A stretch of DNA of 64,000 bases from Flavobacterium sp. (GTDB taxonomy: Bacteria > Bacteroidota > Bacteroidia > Flavobacteriales > Flavobacteriaceae), in contig JAEUTY010000046.1 in the NCBI GenBank assembly GCA_016787805.1, forward strand, positions 30,016 to 94,015, written 5' to 3'. The position numbers and the translations under genes are program-made. The notes below the pieces were generated by a model, which ran no database searches, had not been told where the DNA came from, and saw nothing but the letters and a program-made list of their open reading frames with translations. Positions 40,721-41,058 of this stretch are shown piece after piece. Position 1 is the first letter of the stretch, and every line of letters starts with the position of its first letter.

Positions 40721-40982
40721 CAGTGCGGAAGTAAACTTCTCGCCTTAAGTAAATAAAAAAACCTCTAACGTTAATTAGAGGCTTTTGTTTTCAGAGCGGA
40801 AGACGAGGCTCCCCGATAGTTATCGGGATAAACTTCTCGCCTTAAGTAAACAAAAAACCTCTAACGTTAATTAGAGGCTTTTGTTTTCAGAGCGGAAGAC
40901 GAGGCTCCCCGATTTATCGGGATAAACTTCTCGCCTTAAGTAAACAAAAAAACCTCTAACGTTAATTAGAGGCTTTTGTTTT
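40721..40982 (-). repeat. Three tandem units (71, 96 and 95 nt), each a tRNA-Gly-derived acceptor mini-helix plus a terminator hairpin
   Basis: Units at 40721-40791, 40792-40887 and 40888-40982. Each repeats the tRNA 3' end (GAGCCTCGTCTTCCGCT in the two long units) and the hairpin AAGCCTCTAATTAACGTTAGAGGTTTTTT found directly after the real tRNA. Confidence 0.85.
40945..40982 (-). terminator. Rho-independent terminator immediately 3' of tRNA-Gly
   Basis: The minus strand has CCTCTAA-TTAACG-TTAGAGG followed by T7. The same hairpin recurs in each repeat unit. Confidence 0.7.
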
Positions 40983-40985
40983 CTG

Positions 40986-41058
40986 AGCGGAAGACGAGGC
41001 TCGAACTCGCGACAACCAGCTTGGAAGGCTGGAGCTCTACCAACTGAGCTACTTCCGC
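40986..41058 (-). tRNA. tRNA-Gly (anticodon UCC)
   Basis: 73 nt, folded by hand: acceptor GCGGAAG/CTTCCGC, D arm GCTC-AGTTGGTA-GAGC, anticodon arm CCAGC-CTTCCAA-GCTGG, T arm GCGAG-TTCGAGC-CTCGT, discriminator U. CCA is not encoded. Confidence 0.9.

Follow-up and report, generated by a model that had tools for sequence, protein, structure and literature searches.

Tandem repeats behind a tRNA gene are known from the tyrT locus of Escherichia coli, with its 178-bp tyrT-distal repeats and the rtT RNA (rttR; Rfam family RtT). In the same species, the 3' external transcribed spacer of a tRNA, 3'ETS-leuZ, acts as a sponge for small RNAs. The tyrT locus is mentioned in bioRxiv 10.1101/2024.07.17.603846, and 3'ETS-leuZ in PMC6191717. 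The t-elements of plant mitochondria are recognised by ribonuclease P (RNase P), RNase Z and the CCA-adding enzyme, and are not aminoacylated (PMC1920247; PMC11658184), while general background on the partial tRNA genes that integrative elements leave as attL/attR duplications is found in PMC9897764. Here, we describe an array of tRNA-derived repeats behind the tRNA-Gly(UCC) gene of a Flavobacterium sp. genome, located in a stretch of 64,000 nucleotides (nt) of contig JAEUTY010000046.1 (the window, which refers to this whole stretch). Among known systems, the E. coli tyrT-distal repeat/rtT locus comes closest, with the same architecture and no homology: in Flavobacterium too, tandem repeats lie behind a tRNA gene and each ends in its 3' segment, and the Rfam covariance model of RtT is absent from the 20 matches obtained at E≤10. 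We found no description of the Flavobacterium element in the literature. The array likely originated from tandem tRNA-Gly(UCC) genes and their recombination dynamics, and sequence comparison implies that the long form of its tRNA-derived stub is under purifying constraint.

ARAGORN reports a single tRNA in the window, tRNA-Gly(tcc) at 40985-41058 on the minus strand, and the Rfam tRNA model matches 40986-41058 with 69.6 bits. Read in the direction of transcription, the gene is followed by two repeats of ~95-96 nt and a shorter third, which Tandem Repeats Finder detects as an array with a period of 96, 2.8 copies and 96% matches (40732-41002). Each repeat consists of the tRNA trailer, an identical intrinsic-terminator hairpin and a tRNA-derived stub of 45-47 nt (21 nt in the short repeat), and each long unit ends in GAGCCTCGTCTTCCGCT, the 3' end of the tRNA (Table 1). 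The terminator scan found three identical 30-nt hairpins on the minus strand (T1 to T3) and seven terminator-like sites in total, compared to 0.8 expected. Judged from their letters, T1 to T3 have the features of intrinsic (Rho-independent) terminators, a G+C-containing hairpin followed by a T-run. They also have an upstream A-run and are detected on both strands. T3 probably also terminates the transcript of the convergent gene pepE; in that case, the 3' untranslated region of pepE would include the short stub in reverse complement.

A sequence-only reading of this DNA had described a tRNA-Gly gene followed by tandem stubs with their own terminators, and this is confirmed, with exact coordinates, by ARAGORN, Rfam, Tandem Repeats Finder and the terminator scan. 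The 2-nt indel it placed at the hairpin apex of the long units is present as well, although the repeats differ also in the length of the T-run and in one trailer base (CAG/CTG). Its term "stepwise-reduced series" over-reads the array; what stands is two near-identical long units plus one short form, a form shared with distant relatives (L040, L143 and L083). Unitigs specific to each of the two long units, U1 and U2, are present in four DNA metagenomes, with depth raised over the shared terminator, indicating that the array is genuine and not a misassembly. The tRNA is preceded by a putative promoter of Bacteroidetes type, and the same 'atttgcac' box lies upstream of the tRNA in relatives. No recognisable promoter motif of this type was found ahead of any unit. 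The three units are reported neither by ARAGORN nor by the Rfam tRNA model at E≤10 in a 3-kb search, and thus none scores as a cloverleaf. Other Rfam families were rejected, since only tRNA is real among the 20 matches and the remainder is terminator-like noise.

To place the array in context, we compared 80 species-level Flavobacterium loci anchored on pepE, a comparison of the pepE/tRNA-Gly locus that the sequence-only reading had proposed. A tRNA-Gly(UCC) gene is convergent with pepE in ~66 of the 80, and ~31 of those ~66 have two or three full tandem copies of it. Long stubs are present in seven loci (L040, L064, L067 from F. aquatile, L074, L083, L091, and L112 from F. xinjiangense), as well as in metagenome contigs L120-L126. 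In L112 and L064 (F. zhoui), the order is tRNA, terminator, tRNA, terminator, stub, terminator, such that the stub occupies the third tRNA slot; the distance from terminator to stub equals that from terminator to second tRNA. Moreover, the stub covariance model (R1) aligns full tRNAs from end to end with ~22 bits, treating the tRNA body as an insertion. The position in the third slot and the end-to-end alignment together indicate that the stub is an internally deleted tandem copy of tRNA-Gly. Its 3' strand always matches the resident tRNA, being CTTCCGC in most loci and CTTTCGC in L112 and L064, which points to concerted evolution with the gene. The suggestion that the units are decayed tandem tRNA-Gly copies is, thus, well supported, given the full tandem genes at the same locus and the stub in the third slot.

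On this evidence, one tandem copy would have lost the D arm, the anticodon arm and the 5' half of the T arm. What was left would be the 5' acceptor strand, longer by one base (GCGAGAAG), and the last 17 nt of the tRNA, with a short hairpin gained. The stub, together with the tRNA trailer and the intrinsic terminator, may then have become the ~95-nt repeat.

Several details of the tandem loci were observed in passing. A distance of only ~46 nt separates the first from the second full tRNA-Gly in L112 and L064, with a terminator-like hairpin and no promoter motif between them; these hairpins are either leaky, or are processing or stability elements. In the F. zhoui stub (L064:3262-3331), the linker AAGTTTA is replaced by a second TCCCG..CGGGA hairpin, indicating that the same small hairpin module has been duplicated within one stub. 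Behind three tandem tRNA-Gly genes, L077 carries two copies of the palindrome TTCCGATAGCTATCGGAAC (3380-3590), which resembles the inner hairpin of the stub (TCCCGATnnCTATCGGGA) and may be an element like the repetitive extragenic palindromes (REP); a run of N separates two of the tRNAs of this locus. The inner hairpin was itself considered as a dispersed REP-like palindrome and rejected: CCGATNNNNATCGG has four matches in the window, compared to 1.06 expected, and a perfect match in the unit only.

Close relatives differ in what follows the tRNA. We denote by A the terminator CCTCTAAT..TTAGAGG, by B the terminator CCCCGAAC..GTTCGGGG, by U the long stub and by s the short stub, and give the pepE identity to the window in brackets. 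The window reads A, U, A, U, A, s. The relatives read B without units in L021 (89%); A, U, B and a decayed s in L010-L014 (94%); A, U, A', U, B in L018/L019 (89%); A, U, B, s in L040 and L143 (82-83%); A, U in L141 (83%); A and a diverged s in L139 (86%); and A followed by the 5' half alone in L140 (83%). The sequence of U2 is identical to the single unit of L010, and homologues of the short stub are found in L040, L143, L083 and L139. Copy numbers taken from short-read assemblies are lower bounds. A Logan contig of the same strain without long units (L001) was rejected as a real allele, since its path may be collapsed, the shared terminator of 37 nt being longer than k=31.

Homologous recombination is able to generate all of these differences, acting on segments that are present more than once, namely the 23-nt tRNA 3' end plus trailer, the terminators, and the 5' halves of the stubs. 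Unequal recombination would yield lineages with zero, one or two long units, or with two long units and a short one. The same process would have removed from the window genome the ancestral terminator B (CCCCGAAC), which relatives have and the window locus lacks. The loss of B and the junction of GAGAAGTTTA with CTTCCGC fit a crossover between the 5' half of a long unit and an older short stub, and it is most likely that the short unit of the window arose in this way. In L141 (2209-2540) and L142, the single long stub abuts the pepE stop codon and has no terminator behind it, such that a read-through RNA would run antisense into pepE.

Species with units belong to at least five clades of the pepE tree and are interspersed with species that have none. 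Between clades, the non-tRNA 5' half of the stub (GCGAGAAGTTTATCCCG) is 98% identical, compared to 39% for the 10-nt spacer and 53% for the trailer. The stem of the inner hairpin is kept by compensatory changes at two pairs, with an apex that varies in length from 2 to 20 nt, and the linker AAGTTTA shows sequence conservation. The two units of L018 have 2 differences over 47 positions, and their terminator-plus-spacer segments, by reading, ~8 over 41. Decayed stub copies are found only at array ends (L010, L018, L122, L091, L074 and L140). The contrast between the stub 5' half and its flanks, along with the compensatory changes in the hairpin, argues for constraint on the long stub, unlike neutral debris; the neutral decay expected of a tRNA pseudogene is not seen.

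This pattern bears on two alternatives. The selected feature could be the stack of terminators, which would protect the convergent pepE against read-through transcripts that start from a very strong tRNA promoter, with the stubs as passengers whose tRNA-identical 3' ends supply homology for duplication. In favour, the same bidirectional-looking terminator recurs in every unit, pepE and the array converge in all cases, and the terminators evolve in concert within a genome. However, this does not account for the conservation of the non-tRNA half of the stub while terminators are replaced between species, the units of L141 and L142 lack a terminator behind them, and a single terminator suffices in many species; we regard this explanation as unlikely. 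Alternatively, the stub could be a site at the DNA level, an imperfect palindrome (GGCGAG..TCCCGAT / ATCGGGA..CTCGTC) bound by a recombinase or a regulator. The palindromic architecture is as expected for such a site, as is the sequence conservation of the linker, which looks single-stranded and which structure alone would not require to be conserved. Against it, there is no known candidate protein, the variable apex would alter the spacing of the half-sites, and L064 has swapped the linker for a second hairpin, leaving such a site very improbable.

The sequence-only reading had also considered scars of repeated integration at the tRNA 3' end. Each insertion is bounded by a 23-nt direct repeat (GAGCCTCGTCTTCCGCTCTGAAA) that has the sequence of the tRNA 3' part, as would be expected if the units were attR-like scars or a miniature integrating element. 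In L010 and L040, the tRNA is followed by a terminator (A) other than the ancestral one (B), and a patchy distribution combined with high sequence conservation is a typical signature of mobile DNA. However, all that separates the repeats in any species is a terminator, a spacer of 10-17 nt and the stub 5' half (72 unit-specific nt in the window), and no mobile element, integrase or remnant was found between them in any species compared. A search for an attP counterpart among 50,697 phage records and 72,556 plasmids gave only chance-level matches, and viral contigs of IMG/VR contain no match to the stub pattern. The internal terminators are, in addition, specific to each species. A true duplication of this kind does appear in L083 (3610-4750, minus strand), where ~1 kb of AT-rich foreign DNA comes after the full tRNA, then a partial tRNA copy starting from the anticodon loop, and then the native stub array. 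This insert looks like the remnant of an integrative element; its direct repeat, 45 nt long from the anticodon loop onwards, is of a different kind, and the element ends show no relation to the stub. An att-scar origin is, thus, not supported, and we give it hardly any weight.

The searches of viral contigs produced matches of other kinds. Twelve contigs with a tRNA T-arm and 3' end mostly represent phage tRNA genes and are unrelated to the stub. The pattern GGCGAGAAGTTTAN{0,30}CTTCCGC had 16 matches, all of them false positives in a conserved phage protein-coding gene: this gene (L024-L039, IMG/VR), encoding ...GEKFIGED..FFRK..., contains GGCGAGAAGTTTA...CTTCCGC by chance and is a trap for pattern searches. 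Two contigs of Flavobacterium type in pepE, tRNA-Gly and synteny, L083 and L044, are labelled as metagenome-assembled genomes of 'Bifidobacterium breve' and 'Sphingobacterium thalpophilum', which suggests that they are mis-binned or mislabelled.

The stub can be folded in two ways. In the predicted minimum-energy fold of nine of 10 units, GGCGAG pairs with CUCGUC (the old T-stem 3' strand plus one base), giving a long, irregular hairpin whose 3' tail, UUCCGCU, stays unpaired. By prediction, the acceptor-like fold is ~1.5 kcal/mol worse in the same units, and it contains a 4x8 internal loop as well as a bulge at position 4; a continuous acceptor helix stacked on the T-stem is, thus, not the favoured fold in these calculations. 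The G at position -1, conserved in 16 of 19 units, fits the hairpin closed by the T-stem strand. On the other side, GCGAGAAG can form seven Watson-Crick pairs with CTTCCGC (with a bulged A) or with CTTTCGC (with a bulged G), and a double change in the L139 short stub, from C2:G71 to U2:A71, fits the acceptor-like fold. The short stub folds as a hairpin of -7.6 kcal/mol. Covariation was tried as a means of separating the two helices and was uninformative, as the outer helices are nearly invariant. Of the acceptor helix that the sequence-only reading saw as preserved, the possibility of pairing with one bulged A remains, while its status as the favoured structure does not. The glycyl-tRNA synthetase (GlyRS) identity elements it listed, G1:C72, C2:G71, G3:C70 and U73, occur in the sequences of U1 and U2, while the short unit has A73.

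Because the units have no recognisable promoter of their own, they would be transcribed only when RNA polymerase reads through the preceding terminator, and such read-through transcription is plausible. Contigs from two metatranscriptomes (X25 and X49) run from the tRNA across a terminator and a unit into the next terminator, where they end at its U-tract. In two deep wastewater complementary DNA (cDNA) runs, the unit has a depth of ~2.7 and pooled tRNA k-mers reach hundreds to thousands. No unit RNA was found in one (X79) of three listed small-RNA (miRNA-Seq) bioreactor metatranscriptomes, and no abundant, stable unit RNA was seen in the metatranscriptome and cDNA runs examined.

These observations bear on whether the stubs are tRNA-like mini-RNA genes, whose products would be cut by RNase P and RNase Z, CCA-tailed, and perhaps glycylated by GlyRS or employed to titrate tRNA-handling enzymes in trans. 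Microhelices of tRNA-Gly can be charged. The long units retain the identity elements named above, GCGAGAAG pairs with either 3' strand so that the helix survives the switch at tRNA positions 4:69, the double change in L139 preserves a pair, and the stub is strongly conserved, with a covarying inner hairpin. However, the acceptor-like fold is the less stable one and lacks a stacked T arm, and the conserved G at -1 would pair with C66 or the discriminator. The units also have no anticodon, go unscored by ARAGORN and the Rfam tRNA model, and lie without promoters behind terminators. They are not enriched in RNA runs that capture tRNAs at great depth, and plant t-elements are CCA-tailed yet not aminoacylated (PMC11658184). 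We regard trans-acting mini-RNA genes as improbable, and in our opinion the stub is not a charged mini-tRNA. A more elaborate form is doubtful to at least the same degree: the long stub would be a promoter-less, genus-wide mini-RNA arising from terminator read-through and cut and CCA-tailed as above, acting in trans, for example by carrying glycyl groups for purposes other than translation or by titrating, as a decoy, the enzymes that handle tRNA-Gly, with its copy number tuned by recombination. Of the expressed tRNA-like mini-RNAs put forward by the sequence-only reading, cross-clade conservation and hairpin covariation speak in favour, while the minimum-energy fold, the lack of an own promoter motif and the low depth of the contigs speak against.

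We favour, as an inference, a role of the long stub in cis and as RNA: it would be a structured element of tRNA origin within the 3' external spacer, present in read-through transcripts. Each read-through RNA would end at the next terminator, and the stub may flag it to decay enzymes or to enzymes of tRNA processing. As a model of function, the t-element of plant mitochondria comes closest and offers a plausible, analogy-based picture of how the stub could act.

A number of observations weigh against this account of the origin and role of the array. Constraint is odd for what is supposed to be a pseudogene remnant. The patchy distribution indicates that the stub is dispensable: many lineages do without it, most single-tRNA species lack it, and copies at array ends have decayed. 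The metatranscriptome contigs have depths of 2-7, like those of neighbouring genes, and carry no strand or end information; one RNA run also covers the untranscribed promoter region, indicating that DNA was present in that run. The depth of the unit in the cDNA runs is ~1/100 to 1/1000 of that of the pooled tRNA. The L141 unit has no terminator behind it to end a read-through RNA, and L001 and L139 may be collapsed, so that their copy numbers could be higher than they appear.

Homologues of pepE assign the window to an uncultured Flavobacterium found in metagenomes of sludge and bioreactors. The order of the locus, with pepE, the array and tRNA on the opposite strand, and a GNAT gene, is conserved in relatives. 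The best solved relative of the GNAT protein is glyphosate N-acetyltransferase (2bsw, E=1e-30), and its family matches are to generic GNAT only. No chain of a TacT/AtaT-type toxin occurs among its PDB matches at E≤0.01, and the gene after it encodes an L,D-transpeptidase and not an adjacent antitoxin. The L,D-transpeptidases beside the array are ordinary. The link from these neighbours to aminoacyl-tRNA chemistry that the sequence-only reading had floated is, thus, unsupported. Upstream of pepE, two adjacent paralogous open reading frames (ORFs) of 263 amino acids (38333-39919, minus strand) have N-terminal signal-like segments and a faint similarity to CarbopepD_reg_2; they are conserved in relatives, with variable lengths.

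Table 1. Features of the tRNA-Gly array and the adjoining genes in the window.
Feature	Position	Strand	Evidence
tRNA-Gly(UCC) gene, 73 nt, no encoded CCA	40986-41058	-	ARAGORN; Rfam RF00005
Long stub U1, GGCGAGAAGTTTATCCCGATAAATCGGGGAGCCTCGTCTTCCGCT: 5' arm GGCGAGAAG, TTTA, inner hairpin, final 17 nt of tRNA	40891-40935	-	coordinates read from sequence; model R1, 75.4 bits
Long stub U2: U1 plus 2-nt CT insertion at hairpin apex	40795-40841	-	model R1, 78.7 bits
Short stub, GGCGAGAAGTTTACTTCCGCA: 5' arm, TTTA, acceptor 3' strand, discriminator A	40724-40744	-	model R1, 29.4 bits
Terminator hairpin T1 plus T-run; A-rich upstream, reads as bidirectional	40948-40977	-	terminator scan
Terminator hairpin T2, identical to T1	40853-40882	-	terminator scan
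Terminator hairpin T3, identical to T1 and T2; first one met by the convergent pepE transcript	40757-40786	-	terminator scan
Ancestral tRNA trailer CTGAAATAAATT, abutting pepE stop codon	40712-40723	-	comparison with L021, L010, L018
Putative Bacteroidetes-type tRNA promoter: -33 TTTG (41104-41107), -7 TATATTTG (41075-41082)	41075-41107	-	read from sequence
pepE (dipeptidase E), convergent with array, synteny anchor	40004-40711	+	NCBIfam PRK05282, 291 bits
GNAT acetyltransferase, divergent from tRNA; context, outside array	41206-41649	+	PDB and family matches

tRNA-distal repeats have been known since E. coli tyrT, and the Flavobacterium array represents a second, independent system in another phylum. 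It offers a clear path from tandem tRNA to stub, natural copy-number variants, and strong conservation of a non-tRNA part. The existence of cultured carriers (F. aquatile LMG 4008, F. xinjiangense and F. zhoui) makes the choice between debris, processing signal and small RNA directly testable. Such arrays also have practical consequences, as short-read assemblies break at them, and an annotator may take them for the att sites of an integrated element.

Compared with the described systems, the array shares some features with each. Integrative elements likewise leave, behind an intact tRNA, a second copy of its 3' part as a direct repeat; here, however, there is neither an intervening element nor an attP counterpart, and the repeat unit includes a homologue of the 5' acceptor strand. 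Ordinary tandem tRNA arrays occupy the same position in ~31 of the 80 loci, and the stub is positionally homologous to a copy, yet a tRNA pseudogene should decay, whereas the unique half of the stub is nearly invariant between clades. Like 3'ETS-leuZ, which is released by tRNA processing, the stub would be an RNA from downstream of a tRNA; unlike it, the unit lies beyond a terminator, with no known pairing partner or Hfq-type system here. Plant t-elements are also degenerate, tRNA-derived, tRNA-like sequences kept beside genes, but they retain a tRNA-like fold and define mRNA ends, whereas the stubs have no D, anticodon or T arms and sit behind terminators in the tRNA 3' spacer. The likeness to tyrT/rtT is closest: both comprise tandem repeats directly downstream of a tRNA, each ending in its 3'-terminal ~17-19 nt, and for both, tandem tRNA genes that recombined unequally are the presumed source; like rtT, the Flavobacterium units would be transcribed within the tRNA transcript. 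The Flavobacterium unit differs in being 95 nt long instead of 178, in having an intrinsic terminator of its own, in keeping the 5' acceptor strand, and in lacking a Tpr-like ORF, and its stub is conserved across the genus.

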